Shown here one piece after another: positions 43,914 to 63,000 of a stretch of 64,000 nt of DNA; within the stretch, counting starts at the first letter, position 1, and each line of letters opens with the position of its first letter. Below the pieces are notes generated by a model that had not been told where the DNA came from, made no database searches, and saw only the letters and a program-made list of their open reading frames with translations. Location: NCBI GenBank assembly GCA_035509415.1, contig DATJLQ010000007.1:696-64695 (forward strand), given 5' to 3'. Source of the DNA: Alphaproteobacteria bacterium. Lineage in GTDB: Bacteria > Pseudomonadota > Alphaproteobacteria > JACZXZ01. A program made the translations under genes and the position numbers.

Positions 43914-45059
43914 TCACGGCGAGCCCGCGGCTTCCGCCGGGCCGTCGAGCCCCTCGAACCAGGCCTTGGGGCGGCGCCGCGGCGGGCGCACGAGGTAGAG
44001 GGCGGCGAGCGCGAGCGGCACGAAGCAATTGACGTAGAGGAGCGGGAGGAGCGAGAGGTCCTTCCCGGCGACGTTCTGGATGCCGACCTCGGCCGCCTGC
44101 AGGAAAACGACGCACAGGATCGCGACCAGGACGCGCAGCGTCTGGCCCTGGCGGCTGAAATCGCCCGAGAGCAGGGCCGCGAGCCCGATGAGCGTGAAGG
44201 TGAAGGCGTAGAACGGGCTCACCAGGCGCTGGTGCGCCTCGACGATGAGCTGGCCGAAATAGAACCGGTCGTTGGCATCGTTCATGTTGGGATGGAGCAG
44301 CTCGCCGAGGAAGCGCTCCTGGGGCCGGCGCCATTGGTTCTCGATGCCTTGGGAGAGCCAGCTCAAATCGACGCTGTACCGGTCGAAATAGAGGATCGAG
44401 AGGCGGCCGTCGGTGGGGTTCACCTCCTGGCGGTTGCCGTTGAACAGGACCACGCGCGGCCCGTCGGGCGAGGAGATCAGCTCGCCGCGCTCGGCGGTGT
44501 AGGTCACCGGACGTTTCGGGTTGCGCATGTCCTCGACCAGGATGCCCGCGAGCTCGCCGTCGCCGACGCGCGAGCGCACATAGACCGTGAGCCCGTCGCC
44601 GATCGTGTTGAACTTGCCCTCCTGCAGCAGGAGCGCCGAGAAGTTGTTGTGGATCGCGAACTCGAGGTCCCGGAAGTCGCGGTACGAGGCCGGGAGGAAA
44701 TAGAGGTTGATCGCGTAGGCGGCGACCAGCACGACGCCCGCGATCGCCAGGGCCGGAAGGGCGAGCGACATCTGGCTCACGCCGATCGAGCGCAGCACCA
44801 CCAGCTCGCGGTCCATCCAGAGCTTGTTGTAGGTGAACAGCACCGAGCTGAAGAGGGCGATCGGCAGCACGATCGCGAGGAAGCTCGGCAGCAGGAGCGC
44901 CGTGAGGTAGAGGAAGGTGCCGAACGAAATGCCCTTGTCGACGATCAATTCGACGAAGCGCAGCGACTGGGTGAGCCAGATGGCGCAAGTCAGGCAGAAG
45001 CTGACGAACAGCATCGCGACGAGAAGCTGCTTCAGAATGTAACGGCCGTGCGCCTTCAT
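43914..45059 (-). CDS. lptF: LPS export ABC permease LptF.
   Basis: YjgP/YjgQ family. Start at the internal ATG 45059 (MKAHGRYILKQLL). Confidence 0.85.
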   Translation of the reverse strand: MKAHGRYILKQLLVAMLFVSFCLTCAIWLTQSLRFVELIVDKGISFGTFLYLTALLLPSFLAIVLPIALFSSVLFTYNKLWMDRELVVLRSIGVSQMSLALPALAIAGVVLVAAYAINLYFLPASYRDFRDLEFAIHNNFSALLLQEGKFNTIGDGLTVYVRSRVGDGELAGILVEDMRNPKRPVTYTAERGELISSPDGPRVVLFNGNRQEVNPTDGRLSILYFDRYSVDLSWLSQGIENQWRRPQERFLGELLHPNMNDANDRFYFGQLIVEAHQRLVSPFYAFTFTLIGLAALLSGDFSRQGQTLRVLVAILCVVFLQAAEVGIQNVAGKDLSLLPLLYVNCFVPLALAALYLVRPPRRRPKAWFEGLDGPAEAAGSP

Positions 45060-45294
45060 GGAAGGCTTTATAACCCGGCGCGCGCTTCCTGGATAGGCCG
45101 AAATGCCGCGCTTGCCCAAGAGGTTAGGCGCTCCGGGCGAAGGCGCGGCGCCTTGCAGGACGGGCCCATGCCGTCATGCTTGCGTAAGCGTGCCGGCGGC
45201 CGCGCGCACCCGACGCGCGGCGTGCGCCTGTGTCGCGCAAAAAAGCGCGCGGGCGACCCGGGCGTCGTCGATCCGGATCGCCCGCGCGAGACCG

Positions 45295-45540
45295 CTACTC
45301 GGCGTCGGTTTCCTCGAACTCCTCGATCTCGCCGTGATGCTCGGCGTGCAGCTTGCCCGCTTCGCCCGCATGGTGCTCGGCGTGAAGATGGTGGCCGTGG
45401 GCGACATGCGCGTGGTGCGCCGCCGTCTCGTGCTCCTCGTCCTTGTGGAGCTCCGCCGCGCGGCGGTGATGGAGTGCCGCCTGCTCGTGATGGTGGGCGG
45501 CGGTCTCGTGGTGCTGGGCGAGCTTTTCGACGTGCTTCAT
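45295..45540 (-). CDS. Histidine-rich small acidic protein (81 aa, about 28% His). Putative metal-binding or stress protein.
   Basis: AGGAG RBS 8 nt upstream. The sequence has HH/HHH runs (MKHVEKLAQHHETAAHHHEQAALHH...HAEHHAGE...). Confidence 0.6.
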   Translation of the reverse strand: MKHVEKLAQHHETAAHHHEQAALHHRRAAELHKDEEHETAAHHAHVAHGHHLHAEHHAGEAGKLHAEHHGEIEEFEETDAE

Positions 45541-45686
45541 GGGATGTCACTCCTAGGGGGACGCGGACCGTCCGTCCGCGCCCCACCCTTAGGAGCTTTG
45601 GATTGCAGCGAGGGCGCCGATTCGAAGTCGCGTCGGCCGCAATTCGGCGACGGGTTCGTGATGGTGCCGTGTCGCTTTCGCGTCGC

Positions 45687-46556
45687 CTAGAAGCGGCCCG
45701 CCTCGTAATCCTTGAACGCCTCGAGGATTTCCTCGCGGCTGTTCATGACGAAGGGGCCGTAGCGCACGACCGGCTCGTCGAGCGGCTGCCCCGCGATGAG
45801 CAGGAGGCCCGCCGCCTTGCCGTGGGCCGCGACCGCCAGCGTCTCGCCGTCGGAAAGCAGCGCCGTCGTCCCGCGCGGCACGATCTCGTCGCCGATCTTG
45901 GCCTCGCCCTTGTAGACGTAGGCGAAGGCCGTGTGGCCGGGCGTCACCGGCACGGTCCAGGCCGCACCTTTGTCGAGGCGCAGATCGAGGAACTCGGGCG
46001 CCACGTCGATGCCGCGCACCGGCCCCTCGACGCCGCCGACCTTGCCCGCGATCACGCGCGCGAGCACGCCCGGCGCGGGCTCGATCTCGGGGATCTTGCC
46101 GGCGGCGAACTCCTGGTAACGCGGCGCCCGCATCTTGTCGCGCGCGGGCAGGTTGACCCAGAGCTGGAAGCCCCACAGCAATCCCTTTTCCTGCTCGGGC
46201 ATCTCGGAATGGACGATGCCGCGGCCCGCGGTCATCCATTGCACGTCGCCCGCCTCGATCACGCCGTTGTGACCCTTGTTGTCGCCGTGGCGCATCTTTC
46301 CCGCGAGCATGTAGGTCACGGTCTCGAAACCGCGATGGGGATGCTCGGGGAAGCCGGCGATGTAGGCGCCCGGATCATCGGAGCGGATCTCGTCGAGCAG
46401 AAGGAACGGATCGAGCTCGCTGAGGCGCGGATTGCCGATCGCGCGGTTGAGGCTGACGCCGCCGCCGTCCTGGGTCGGCATCGCCGGTATCGTCTTGGTA
46501 ACGCCGCGCGCGGCTCGCGTGCCCGCGGCGTCCTTGGTCTTGGTTTCCGTGGCCAT
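45687..46556 (-). CDS. Pirin-family protein (bicupin).
   Basis: Motif FPEHPHRGFETVTYMLAG with the His metal site. 289 aa. Confidence 0.85.
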   Translation of the reverse strand: MATETKTKDAAGTRAARGVTKTIPAMPTQDGGGVSLNRAIGNPRLSELDPFLLLDEIRSDDPGAYIAGFPEHPHRGFETVTYMLAGKMRHGDNKGHNGVIEAGDVQWMTAGRGIVHSEMPEQEKGLLWGFQLWVNLPARDKMRAPRYQEFAAGKIPEIEPAPGVLARVIAGKVGGVEGPVRGIDVAPEFLDLRLDKGAAWTVPVTPGHTAFAYVYKGEAKIGDEIVPRGTTALLSDGETLAVAAHGKAAGLLLIAGQPLDEPVVRYGPFVMNSREEILEAFKDYEAGRF

Positions 46557-46618
46557 GTTGGCATCCTCCGTTGGCGCGTTAGATCGGGCGCCGCGCGCAC
46601 GCCGTCAAGTGCGGGCAC

Positions 46619-47242
46619 CTAGACGTAACCGAGGCTTTGCAGCACCTCGGCGCTGCCCTCGAGGATCATGTTGATCGCGACCAAGGCCACCGCCGCGAGG
46701 CCGACATAGACGAGCCATGGATAGCGCCCGAGATAGCGCGCGATCGCGTGCGCCGCGAACGCCATGAGGGCGATCGAGAGCGCGAGGCCGATGCCGAGCA
46801 CCCAGGGATGCTGATGCGCGGCCCCCGCGACCGCGAGCACGTTGTCGAGCGAGAGCGACAGGTCGGCGAGCGCCACCTGGAAAATCGCCTGGCGCATGGT
46901 CTTGGGTGCCTGGCGCGACGCCGGCTCGGACCCCGCGTTTGTCGGCGGCGCCAATTCGTGGCGCGTCTCGCGCCAGATCTTCCACGCGACCCATAGAAGA
47001 AGGAGGCCGCCCGCGAGCGTGAGCCCCACGATCGCGAGCAGCGGCACCGCGACGAAGGCGAGCGCCACGCGCAGAAGGGTCGCGAGTGCGACACCGTAGA
47101 AGATCACGCGCCCGCGGCGCTCGGGCTCAAGGCCGCTCGCGGCGAGGCCGAGGATGATCGCGTTGTCGCCCGACAGCACGATGTCGATCACGATCACCGC
47201 GCCCAGGCTCGCGAGGGCGGCAAAATCGAATTCCGGGCTCAT
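46619..47242 (-). CDS. TerC-family integral membrane protein.
   Basis: Duplicated TerC motifs LSGDNAIILG and LSLDNVLAV. Confidence 0.8.
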   Translation of the reverse strand: MSPEFDFAALASLGAVIVIDIVLSGDNAIILGLAASGLEPERRGRVIFYGVALATLLRVALAFVAVPLLAIVGLTLAGGLLLLWVAWKIWRETRHELAPPTNAGSEPASRQAPKTMRQAIFQVALADLSLSLDNVLAVAGAAHQHPWVLGIGLALSIALMAFAAHAIARYLGRYPWLVYVGLAAVALVAINMILEGSAEVLQSLGYV

Positions 47243-47440
47243 GGCCCGGAAATCCTACACCATTCGGGGTGCCGACGGTCGAGCGGCCAAACCCGGCGGC
47301 CGAACCCGGCCGAGCGAGACCCGGCGGGACGAGATCGGGCCCAAATCCCGGTTGCGACGCCGCCTGACTTGTGTCAACCAACCGGAGCCGGGCCGCCGGT
47401 CGGTCAATAGAAGTCCCGCGGCGCGGCAGGAGAGCCCATT

Positions 47441-48562
47441 TTGGTAAGCCGCATCACCGCGATCTACCGCATCGAGAGCGACGCGCACGCGATCGGCGCG
47501 CGCGCCCAGGCGCTCGCGGTCGAGCAAAGCGTAGAGATGCCGGTCGCGGCGATCGACGACCGCATGGTGCTCGACGAGATCGTCGGGCGCATCGAGGGGA
47601 TCGAGGAGTTGGCACCCGGCCGGTTCGAGGTGCGTATCGGGCTCGCGGTCGCGACCACCGGCCCCGAGGTCGGCCAGCTCATGAACATGCTGTTCGGCAA
47701 CAGCTCGATCCACCCGGACATCGAGCTCCACGACGCGATCCTGCCGCCCGAAATCCTGACCGCGTTCGGCGGGCCGCGCCACGGGCTCGAGGGATTGCGC
47801 GCGCGCGTCCGCGCCGAGGGGCGCGCCATGACCTGCTCGGCCTTGAAGCCGCAGGGTTTCGCGCCCGCGCGCCTTGCCGAGCTCGCGCGGCGCTTCGCTC
47901 TCGGCGGCATCGACTACATCAAGGACGATCACGGCCTCGCCGACCAGGCCTATAGCCCGTTCGACGAGCGCGTGGGCGTCTGCGCCGAGGCGGTCGCGAA
48001 GGCGGCGCGCGAGACCGGCCATCCGACGCGCTATTTGCCGAGTCTCTCGGGCGATCTCGACCGGCTCCGGGCGCAGGTGAAGCGCGCGCGCGCGGCCGGG
48101 CTCGACACACTCCTGATCGCGCCGCTGGTCGTGGGGTTGCCCGCGTTCCATGCGTTGGTGCGCGAGAATCCGGACATGGCGTTCATGGCCCATCCCGCAC
48201 TCGCGGGCGCCGCGCGTTTCGCGCCCCCACTTCTGTTGGGAAAGCTGTTTCGGCTGTTCGGTGCCGACGCGACCGTGTTCCCGAATCACGGCGGCCGCTT
48301 CGGCTATTCGCGCGAGACCTGCGCGGCGCTGGCCGACGCGGCGCGCGGCGCCTGGGGTGCGCTCGAGCCCGCGGTGCCGGTGCCCGCGGGCGGGATGACG
48401 CCGGAGCGCGTGCCGGAGATGCTTGACTTCTATGGGACCGAGGTCATGCTCCTCATCGGCGGCGGACTGCTCGCGGCGCGCGAGCGGTTGACCCAGGAGA
48501 CGGCGGCGTTCGTCGCGCGCGTCGCCGAGATCAAGGGCACGAGCCGCGGGCGCAGGCGATAG
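47441..48562 (+). CDS. RuBisCO-like protein (form IV RLP).
   Basis: RuBisCO large-subunit barrel with the GGIDYIKDDHG motif, but no canonical carboxylase active-site set. 373 aa. Confidence 0.8.
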   Translation: MVSRITAIYRIESDAHAIGARAQALAVEQSVEMPVAAIDDRMVLDEIVGRIEGIEELAPGRFEVRIGLAVATTGPEVGQLMNMLFGNSSIHPDIELHDAILPPEILTAFGGPRHGLEGLRARVRAEGRAMTCSALKPQGFAPARLAELARRFALGGIDYIKDDHGLADQAYSPFDERVGVCAEAVAKAARETGHPTRYLPSLSGDLDRLRAQVKRARAAGLDTLLIAPLVVGLPAFHALVRENPDMAFMAHPALAGAARFAPPLLLGKLFRLFGADATVFPNHGGRFGYSRETCAALADAARGAWGALEPAVPVPAGGMTPERVPEMLDFYGTEVMLLIGGGLLAARERLTQETAAFVARVAEIKGTSRGRRR

Positions 48563-61859: not shown

Positions 61860-63000
61860 AATCAGGCGCGCGACGCTCCAGCTGTGCGGACTGCCGATCA
61901 TTATTTGACCGTCAAACGTAACCATGGTTACGTTTATAAGTGGCTTTTTTCTCTAAATGCCGCTGCCAGTAACCACAGAAATCGACTGACGGCTTGCGCT
62001 TCATCGCGAGCGCCGCAATTTGGTTGACCTGATCGCCGTTCGGCGTGCGGCGATTATCTTCACGCCACGATGCCTCTTGTGCGTACCGAAGTAGATAAGG
62101 GCCTGCAATGTGGTGGTGATGCCCAATCTCACCCCGGCGCATGCGGCTAAAAAATTCCTCAGCCCAATTCGTGCATGCTCCGTCGAGGCTGTACGCTTCC
62201 TCGTGATTGATGCGCTTCATTTCGAAGCGGTCGTGTAGTTCGTCCCAGGCACGGGCTTCATCGGCATTGACGGTCGTGCCTTTCGCGATGCGGGACCGAA
62301 TGAAATCAAGCGCCTGCCCTTCGGTACGAAAGACGGCGGGAAGCGAATTGCCGCCACGCTCGCGGATCACCACGACGCATTGGCGCTTCCCGCTCTTGTT
62401 CTGCCACAAGCGCCGATCGCGCCTGTTCTCCCGCTCGTTTGCAGGCTTGACGTAGCCGCCAAAAAATCCGCCGTCGATTTCGCGGGTCTTGCCATCTCCG
62501 CCGACCACGCGCCCTTTCAATTCGCCTGCCATCACTTCGCGCATCTTGTGCGCCAAGACGAAACTGGCCTTGTACGAAATGCCGAGATCGCGGCTAAGCG
62601 CGAGCATGCTCTTGCCCTTAACCTCATTACAGAAAATCGCAATTGCCGCGAGATAGCCGCGCAAGGGCAGTTTGTGTGAAGCGAACAGGGTGCCGGACGT
62701 AACCGAGAAATCTGCCCGGCAGCCCCCGCACCGCCAACGCGGGGCCCCGTGAGGGCGCCGGCAGTCGTACACCTTCGGTGAGCCGCATTTCGGGCGGTAC
62801 GGCGCGCCGTCAGTCTCGGGCCAGCGCACCTTGCAAAACAGCGCTTCCGCTTCGACGTCCGAAAGCCGCATGACCTGGGCCAAGGTCAGGCTTTTCGCGG
62901 CTCGGGACAGGAGGAAGTGCTGTGCCATGGGTGTCATTTATGACACCTACGGGCGGCCTTGTCAAAGGGAAACGTGTCAGATATGCTCCTTTTTAGTCAG
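61860..63000 (-). mobile_element. IS1595-family insertion sequence (approximate extent).
   Basis: Transposase gene flanked by palindromes at 61916-61935 and 62932-62947. Exact terminal inverted repeats were not resolved. Confidence 0.45.
61912..62937 (-). CDS. IS1595-family transposase (ISXO2-like DDE domain with N-terminal zinc-ribbon).
   Basis: Zn-ribbon CGSPKVYDC...RWRCGGCRADFSVTSGTLF plus a DDE_Tnp_IS1595 core. The gene lies in a low-GC segment. Confidence 0.85.
   Translation of the reverse strand: MTPMAQHFLLSRAAKSLTLAQVMRLSDVEAEALFCKVRWPETDGAPYRPKCGSPKVYDCRRPHGAPRWRCGGCRADFSVTSGTLFASHKLPLRGYLAAIAIFCNEVKGKSMLALSRDLGISYKASFVLAHKMREVMAGELKGRVVGGDGKTREIDGGFFGGYVKPANERENRRDRRLWQNKSGKRQCVVVIRERGGNSLPAVFRTEGQALDFIRSRIAKGTTVNADEARAWDELHDRFEMKRINHEEAYSLDGACTNWAEEFFSRMRRGEIGHHHHIAGPYLLRYAQEASWREDNRRTPNGDQVNQIAALAMKRKPSVDFCGYWQRHLEKKATYKRNHGYV

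Follow-up and report, generated by a model that had tools for sequence, protein, structure and literature searches.

The locus and its gene

A 64,000-nucleotide (nt) stretch of the genome of an Alphaproteobacteria bacterium (assembly GCA_035509415.1, contig DATJLQ010000007.1, positions 696 to 64,695 of the forward strand), hereafter called the window, contains a short gene for a histidine-rich protein on its minus strand. A preliminary description, made from the DNA sequence alone, had compared this protein with Hpn-like peptides that store and buffer nickel or zinc. It appears instead that the gene represents a large and strongly constrained bacterial family of His/Ala-patterned helical hairpins, and metal binding is the most plausible biochemical activity of such a His-rich protein. 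The gene is the following.

45295 to 45540, minus strand: coding sequence for a protein of 81 amino acids (aa) rich in His, Ala, and Glu, recognized from the list of open reading frames (ORFs), its composition, its G+C content at third codon positions (GC3), a match to the family profile, and an AlphaFold2 model.

The ORF starts with ATG, and its product reads MKHVEKLAQHHETAAHHHEQAALHHRRAAELHKDEEHETAAHHAHVAHGHHLHAEHHAGEAGKLHAEHHGEIEEFEETDAE. The protein consists of 22 His (27%), 16 Glu, and 16 Ala, and it has no Cys. Its 18 acidic residues (D+E) compare with 6 basic ones (K+R), its hydrophobic residues are limited to 5 Leu, 2 Val, 1 Ile, and 1 Phe, and its longest run of His is HHH. The preliminary description had called the protein His-rich, had quoted two strings from it, and had pointed to an acidic tail. 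Both strings are present in the sequence, as is the tail (EIEEFEETDAE at the C-terminus), and the protein is indeed His-rich, although the count of about 23 His has to be corrected to 22.

Is this ORF a gene? The G+C content of the window is 69%, and long spurious ORFs overlap the His-rich gene on both strands, as they do throughout the window. This overlap is what would be expected if the ORF had arisen by chance in GC-rich DNA or were an antisense shadow. However, the probability of such an origin is close to nil. The His-rich frame is conserved in genomes of low as well as high G+C content, the median ratio of nonsynonymous to synonymous substitution rates (dN/dS) is 0.05 over 34 homologue pairs, and the GC3 of the gene is 0.87, similar to that of the flanking genes. 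Because of these properties, the ORF lies far beyond what chance produces. Furthermore, the gene has a Shine-Dalgarno (SD) sequence and a terminator, and gene calling on 4 independent metagenome contigs yielded exactly the same protein, in a stretch where the genes follow the same order (TerC-pirin-X-LptF-LptG-LptD, with X as the His-rich gene). A search of the six-frame translation of the window with the family profile (hmmsearch) returned a single match, which was this ORF (E = 2.6e-21, 71.5 bits). The conservation data refute a chance ORF, and the 81-aa ORF is a real gene.

Distribution and conservation of the family

A word-index search identified 16 relatives of the window protein, all of them annotated as hypothetical. 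A profile made from these relatives was compared with 1.84 billion representative proteins, each standing for a cluster at 50% identity, and matched 1574 clusters at E<=1e-3 and 561 at E<=1e-10. A genome scan, which sampled one genome per GTDB species, confirmed at least 77 family loci. At least 40 of these belong to Alphaproteobacteria, including Xanthobacteraceae/Bradyrhizobium, Methylocella, Acetobacteraceae/Rhodopila, and Rhizomicrobium, and at least 21 belong to Acidobacteriota. The others were found in Gammaproteobacteria/Burkholderiales (at least 5), Gemmatimonadota (at least 3), Planctomycetota and Verrucomicrobiota (at least 2 each), and Nitrospirota, Bacteroidota, Melainabacteria, and organisms known by the label 'Proteobacteria' only (at least 1 each). 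In other words, the family spans at least 8 phyla. Conservation in other genomes, which the preliminary description had proposed as a check on the gene, was found in both the protein clusters and the genome loci.

Once their starts are corrected, the family genes encode proteins of 68-77 aa with 9-26 His (median 20). The window protein is 37-63% identical to 33 family members, and the dN/dS given above places the family under strong purifying selection. No Pfam or NCBIfam family could be assigned to the window protein or to 34 members; the scans gave weak matches to DUF1771, SNAP, and AdAR-repeat only, which are typical of Ala-rich helical hairpins. Neither the single protein nor the family profile retrieved anything relevant from the PDB sequences. 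The profile matched only YibL (E = 0.12) and no His-rich or metal-binding protein. A tblastn search against plasmids gave no match, with a query that was probably masked by the low-complexity filter. Sources that name members of the family call them 'hypothetical protein' throughout, except for two automatic JGI labels. The family, large as it is, appears to be undescribed, as it has no Pfam, NCBIfam, or PDB entry and a literature search on it found nothing.

Carriers of the family, as judged from the titles of the records (L005-L081), are overwhelmingly organisms of soil, peat, and bog, and many are acid-tolerant. Acid-leaning carriers include Acidobacteriota, Methylocella, Beijerinckia (P0140), Rhodopila, and Rhodanobacter, along with metagenome-assembled genomes (MAGs) from palsa, bog, and SPRUCE peat. 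The family matches listed include no model organism of enteric or marine origin.

Paralogues are common within genomes and sometimes occur within one locus. Two copies can lie within 3 kb of each other on opposite strands, as in L045 (3926-4132 on the plus strand and 6542-6333 on the minus strand) and L064 (2463-2642 plus and 3292-3104 minus). Likewise, L011 and L025 share one MAG, and L044 and L065 share another. In frame with its family domain, a protein of 145 aa recovered on 17 contigs (P0222) carries the C-terminal fragment of an ATPase domain of the histidine-kinase type (PF02518) and nothing else of the kinase; this protein may be a lineage-specific fusion or a remnant.

Protein architecture

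Positional conservation was measured across 157 representatives and is given here in the numbering of the window protein. His is 90-99% conserved at positions 10, 11, 17, 24, 25, 37, 42, 43, 45, 50, 57, 65, and 69, and also at position 31, which is Leu in the window copy. At position 53, His is 89% conserved. Ala is 90-100% conserved at positions 14, 21, 22, 28, 29, 40, 41, 44, 47, 54, and 61, and conserved Gly residues occupy positions 35 (Glu in the window copy), 49, and 70. Of the 14 His positions conserved to at least 90%, the window protein retains 13, together with His53 and all 11 Ala positions with this degree of conservation. It departs from the family at the loop residue Gly35 and at several charged positions.

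The conserved positions follow a repeat. The family pattern consists of four AAxHHxx heptads, a loop, and the motif AAHHAHxAxGHxxHA...EAxKxH...HG, and the window protein conforms to it; a periodicity of 21 nt is visible in the repeats of the DNA. In heptad register, position a is Ala and position d is His in both helices, and helix 1 adds Ala at b and His at e. Because of this register, one broad face of each helix forms a stripe of small Ala residues and imidazoles. AlphaFold2 models the protein as a two-helix hairpin with a mean predicted local distance difference test (pLDDT) score of 89.4, in which helix 1 covers residues 2-33, the loop residues 34-36, and helix 2 residues 37-75. The acidic tail is modeled with low confidence from about residue 70 onward. 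The protein is thus predicted to be an ordered hairpin, with stripes of Ala and imidazole on its inter-helix and outer faces, and not a low-complexity His-rich peptide. A Foldseek search of the PDB with the hairpin model gave no significant match. The N-terminus (MKHVEKLAQHHE) is hydrophilic, the grand average of hydropathy (GRAVY) is -1.28, and neither a signal peptide nor a hydrophobic N-terminal segment was found in the window protein, which by these features of its sequence is cytoplasmic.

In two metagenome proteins of 159 aa (P0157 and P0158), two His/Ala hairpin domains are naturally fused in tandem, with a linker of about 20 residues between them. At the d and e positions of these proteins, Tyr, Phe, Trp, Met, or Leu stands in place of many of the conserved His residues. 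These substitutions fit buried interface positions and therefore suggest that two hairpins act together. The AlphaFold2 model of the tandem fusion has a predicted template modeling (pTM) score of 0.77.

The computed charge of the protein depends strongly on pH. At pH 7, the computed net charge is -10.5 for the window copy and about +3 for the family consensus. The word acidic, used in the preliminary description, thus suits the window copy and a few other members but not the family as a whole. Between pH 7 and pH 5, the computed net charge rises to +12 for the window copy and to +22 for the consensus. This swing invites an alternative in which the protein is a pH-responsive protectant or proton buffer, serving acid stress rather than metal homeostasis. 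Its roughly 20 imidazoles would titrate between pH 5.5 and 7, so that the protein would either soak up protons or switch its fold, assembly, or partner binding upon acidification of the cytoplasm. His residues at core positions would make the fold pH-sensitive, the carriers are dominated by taxa of acidic soil, peat, and bog, and some homologues are linked to a general stress sigma factor, as described below. However, bulk buffering needs neither fixed His positions nor a dN/dS of 0.05, and a protein of 9 kDa could matter as a buffer only at an extremely high abundance. Furthermore, members with few His exist, and the ecological skew may be a sampling bias that only reflects which soils were sequenced. 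Taken together, these points make a role in acid stress unlikely, though by no means negligible.

Comparison with known proteins

Hpn and Hpn-like of Helicobacter pylori store and detoxify nickel. Hpn, which occurs in a single genus, carries EEGCC motifs and runs of six to seven His. The window protein resembles Hpn in being small, cytoplasmic, and very rich in His accompanied by Glu or Gln, and true homology would make it a member of this group of nickel-storage peptides. The case for homology comes from composition, namely 27% His plus Glu in fewer than 100 aa. In a BLASTP comparison with a manually entered Hpn sequence, only 2 residues aligned (E = 31). In contrast to Hpn, the window family has neither His6-7 runs nor EEGCC, shows positional conservation across at least 8 phyla, and has the predicted fold of an ordered heptad hairpin. 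The window protein has no Cys at all, and hence no Cys pairs, and no His run above three; in the family, about 15 His positions are fixed across phyla, and selection is strong. The resemblance to Hpn put forward in the preliminary description is compositional only. Homology to Hpn is effectively refuted by the BLASTP result, the lack of Cys, the short His runs, and the ordered hairpin, and its remaining probability is very small.

SmbP is closer in form. It is bacterial, helical, about 90 aa long, and His-rich, with repeats of about seven residues, and it binds several divalent metals. However, SmbP is periplasmic and has a signal peptide, whereas the window protein lacks a hydrophobic N-terminus. 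The repeat of SmbP is not AAxHHxx and carries single His residues rather than HH pairs. An hhalign comparison with a manually entered SmbP sequence gave a probability of 0.7%. Membership in an SmbP family was rejected on the lack of homology and the periplasmic location of SmbP. As a working analogy, SmbP stands: it offers an example of a helical protein with His in heptad-like repeats that binds several metal ions. SmbP has also been used as a tag for immobilized metal affinity chromatography (PMC8929023, among others).

The top Foldseek neighbor of the window model was PDB entry 5LOS, the DELD protein Dld1 (PIIN_05872) of the fungus Serendipita/Piriformospora indica, with a query template modeling score (TMq) of 0.70 and 20% identity over 88 columns; this match was not significant (E = 0.95). 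The remaining neighbors were generic ferritin or rubrerythrin hairpins. Dld1, like SmbP, binds several metal ions, and Nostadt et al. reportedly found in 2020 that it binds Zn and Fe ions. Dld1 and the window protein are both small proteins of two helices with spaced His and Ala and no Cys. The central Gly of Dld1 is a further likeness that holds at the level of the family, the window copy having Glu at the loop Gly. DELD proteins have regularly spaced His and Ala, two antiparallel helices around a central conserved Gly, and a C-terminal RSIDELD motif (PMC3192844). Dld1 is a secreted fungal effector of 101-135 aa with a signal peptide and RSIDELD, and is known only from Sebacinales, whereas the window protein is bacterial and cytoplasmic, and neither a signal peptide nor an RSIDELD motif is present in its 81 residues. 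The family profile did not detect 5LOS among PDB sequences. The resemblance to Dld1 is more likely to have arisen by convergence.

A face lined with His also raises the possibility of a haem or other tetrapyrrole ligand. Designed bis-His four-helix maquettes ligate haem between their helices, and HRP2 of Plasmodium binds haem. The d-position His residues of both helices, the a-position Ala residues, and the conserved Gly49 would match the geometry of bis-His haem ligation. In this alternative, a dimer of hairpins would ligate haem through core His pairs, with Ala making room for it, and would sequester, chaperone, or detoxify haem. A parallel exists in the DELD proteins, whose His/Ala composition resembles that of HRPII, a protein implicated in haem detoxification (PMC3192844). 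However, the conserved His residues far exceed the number that haem sites need, and the few hydrophobic residues counted above leave little for a pocket. No gene for haem biosynthesis, haem uptake, or haem oxygenase is a conserved neighbor of the family, and no haem protein of the PDB proved similar in sequence searches. Haem binding is therefore considered improbable.

Two further systems are comparable in concept only. ROP and Alacoil-type proteins are dimers of helical hairpins, some 60-70 aa in length, in which small residues occupy the core heptad positions, and Csp1 and Csp3 are Cys-lined four-helix bundles that store many copper ions, Csp3 in the cytosol. What they share with the window protein is a hairpin or bundle that has either small core residues or a core that ligates metal. 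No homology to either system was found, and dimerization into a bundle is inferred in the present case. The ligands here would be His and not Cys, so that borderline or hard divalent ions, and not Cu(I), would be expected in place of the cargo of Csp. As judged by sequence, the family is not homologous to the known small His-rich metal-binding proteins.

Genomic context and possible stress regulation

Pirin (45687-46556) and TerC (46619-47242) lie upstream of the His-rich gene on the same strand, and LptF, LptG, and LptD lie downstream. The preliminary description took pirin and TerC as metal and stress genes and hence as a clue to function. Their adjacency is real, but the clue does not survive comparison with other genomes. 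Pirin, TerC, and Lpt genes occur near the homologue in none of the at least 77 genome loci and in none of 14 further metagenome loci; this neighborhood is found only in near-identical copies of the window locus. As no relative shares it, this neighborhood gives no information on function. In 13 loci of the Xanthobacteraceae type, the gene is flanked by a gene for a tetratricopeptide repeat (TPR) protein on one side and by flagellar genes (FlgA/F/G, DksA, FliX) on the other. The family gene adjoins a PHO4 transporter in some Acidobacteriota, and elsewhere the neighbors are mostly small hypothetical genes. Among the loci examined, no neighbor is conserved across lineages.

A strict EcfG-type promoter motif (GGAAC-N16/17-CGTT) was found upstream of 5 of 78 homologues, where 0.27 would be expected (P ~1e-5). 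The motif lies 60-83 nt upstream of the gene (L017, L019, L030, L043, and L074). All five carriers are Alphaproteobacteria, namely two Bradyrhizobium, two Rhizomicrobium, and one uncultured alphaproteobacterium. Because of these five motifs, at least part of the family is predicted to belong to the alphaproteobacterial general stress response.

Two other upstream elements recur within subgroups. Loci of the Xanthobacteraceae type carry a block, GTCGCAAAT(G/A)nnTCATCGAnCCCGGCGATGC, about 40-80 nt 5' of the gene (L008, L010-L012, L018, L022, L023, L028, L037, L040, L046, L052, L054, L055, L071, L077, and L093-L102). The CCCGG in this block can pair with the CCGGGAG ribosome-binding site (RBS), and the block matched no recognized type of promoter or operator. 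Members of one alphaproteobacterial clade (L033, L038, L041, L047, and L050), whose proteins start with MSKKA(A/S)EHH.. and contain ..THAARHH.., share a near-perfect 16-bp palindrome, TGAGC(G/A)ATTTTGCTCA, about 70-100 nt upstream. The palindrome looks like the operator of a dimeric regulator.

A gene that stands alone in variable contexts could also encode a small regulator or adaptor. In such a case, the His/Ala face would bind a specific partner, such as a sigma or anti-sigma factor, the ribosome, or an enzyme, and His would serve recognition or a metal- or pH-gated interaction, not metal storage. Small helical hairpins are common as regulators, NepR of the general stress pathway being one example, and strong purifying selection on near-invariant positions is typical of surfaces that bind partners. 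However, no conserved neighbor indicates a partner, and none of 34 members matched a Pfam family, NepR included. Moreover, the presence of several paralogues per genome or locus fits a dosage or effector role better. A regulatory role thus appears rather unlikely.

Leader, terminator, and neighboring genes

The window copy is flanked by the following elements.

45550 to 45554, minus strand: SD sequence AGGAG, read from the sequence, 9 nt before the ATG.
45549 to 45596, minus strand: GC-rich leader stem-loop identified by RNA folding, GCUCCUAAGGGUGGGGCGCGGAC-GGACG-GUCCGCGUCCCCCUAGGAGU.
45239 to 45288, minus strand: intrinsic terminator with a 16-bp GC-rich stem followed by UUUUUU, identified by folding (inverted repeat I1).
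45541 to 45686, minus strand: intergenic region of 146 nt between pirin and the His-rich gene, covered by promoter and motif scans.

The AGGAG RBS named in the preliminary description is present, and the GC-rich hairpin that had been called imperfect is not only real but stronger than described. Its folding energy is -36.9 kcal/mol (z = -5.4), and none of 200 dinucleotide shuffles was as stable. The 3' arm of the stem-loop contains the SD sequence, as CUCCU pairs with AGGAG. The predicted hairpin therefore probably occludes the RBS and acts as a stabilizer at the 5' end of the mRNA, as a brake on translation, or as both. It occurs once in the window, and is therefore not a dispersed repeat. 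A search of Rfam with the leader and with the whole window gave no match, indicating that the hairpin belongs to no known class of thermometer or riboswitch. In the closest subgroup (L034, L096, and L029), GC-rich hairpins of different sequence likewise lie immediately 5' of the RBS. The motif GCTGCAAT, which lies about 10 nt upstream of the foot of the hairpin, is common to the window copy and L029. A metagenome scan for close relatives returned only relatives of at most 70% identity, and their leaders differ.

The stem of the terminator starts 6 nt past the stop codon of the His-rich gene. The 76-nt segment 45225-45300 folds with a minimum free energy (MFE) of -40.7 kcal/mol, and the centroid structure, which is the stem alone, has -36.8 kcal/mol. 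A simple terminator scan missed this element because its loop is longer than 8 nt. A scan for sigma-70-like promoters across 44900-47500 gave no match, and the EcfG motif has no match anywhere in the 64-kb window. An imperfect inverted repeat of 18 nt spans the stop codon of pirin (45635-45698, minus strand; GGCCGCUUCUAGGCGACG ... CGUCGCCGAAUUGCGGCC) and lacks a U-tract. Lying between pirin and the His-rich gene, this repeat could act either as a weak terminator or in mRNA processing. Because no terminator with a U-tract separates the two genes, co-transcription with pirin by read-through is possible.

Some features further from the gene were also recorded. The start of LptF (43914-45119, minus strand) is ambiguous, as the longest ORF, with a TTG start, encodes 401 aa, compared with 381 aa in the gene calls made on the identical metagenome contigs. 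If LptF has 381 aa, the gap after the terminator of the His-rich gene is about 235 nt. Divergent from TerC, a gene on the plus strand (47441-48562) encodes a 373-aa protein whose only match is to the catalytic domain of the large chain of RuBisCO (E = 6e-21), so that it is classed as RuBisCO-like. Close to the end of the window, the minus strand encodes a transposase of the IS1595 family (61912-62937).

A model for the function of the protein

What does a hairpin with a His-lined face do? The best-supported model is that the protein is a cytoplasmic, probably dimeric hairpin whose His-lined interface binds several divalent metal ions and buffers or sequesters them under stress. This model is held tentatively, at somewhat less than an even chance. 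Two hairpins would pack through their Ala/His faces into a four-helix bundle similar to that of ROP or the Alacoil, with His lining the interface. The His array would bind several divalent transition-metal ions, which could be Zn, Ni, Co, Cu(II), or Fe. These would be favored over Cu(I) because the protein has no Cys and offers His and Glu as ligands. Folding and assembly would depend on both pH and metal, because the interface is made of histidines. By buffering or sequestering metals, the protein would limit metal-catalyzed damage under stress. Expression is probably stress-linked, with some alphaproteobacterial homologues lying behind EcfG promoters, and in the window copy the leader hairpin over the RBS probably limits translation, stabilizes the mRNA, or does both.

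Several observations weigh against this metal-buffering model. No metal transporter, metal sensor, or metalloenzyme gene is a conserved neighbor of the family. The window copy has no EcfG motif, and promoter scans near the gene found no match. A hairpin of -37 kcal/mol over the SD sequence argues that translation is normally poor. Members with only 9-10 His (L076, L081, and L066) are awkward for a bulk metal store, and binding to one particular partner, either a protein or a cofactor, would also be consistent with the fixed positions and the dN/dS of 0.05. Strong positional constraint and low-His members thus weigh somewhat against pure bulk storage. Furthermore, although the Foldseek neighbors of the tandem-fusion model were all four-helix bundles, none was significant (E>=0.07, TM score <=0.41, root-mean-square deviation ~17 A).

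A bolder form of the metal-buffering model can be stated for the family as a whole. The family would be a widespread 'histidine-zipper' class of soil bacteria, consisting of dimeric four-helix bundles with a core ladder of about 15 imidazoles per chain. Assembly of these bundles would be gated by metal and protons, several Zn, Ni, Co, Cu(II), or Fe ions would be stored or buffered, and expression would be under general stress control. This extended model is possible but doubtful. If true, it would provide a His-based counterpart of the Cys-lined copper storage bundles of the Csp proteins.

Significance of the family

The known small His-rich metal-binding proteins are a few isolated cases, namely Hpn, SmbP, and the fungal DELD proteins. 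The ORF described here points to a much larger bacterial family that is broad and strongly constrained. As the protein is short, soluble, and Cys-free, it should be easy to study experimentally. If it binds metals, it would offer a ready natural scaffold or affinity tag. More importantly for the biology of its carriers, the family would then represent a new cytoplasmic metal-buffering device in dominant soil phyla such as Acidobacteriota and Alphaproteobacteria, and would be relevant to survival in acidic, metal-mobilizing soils.

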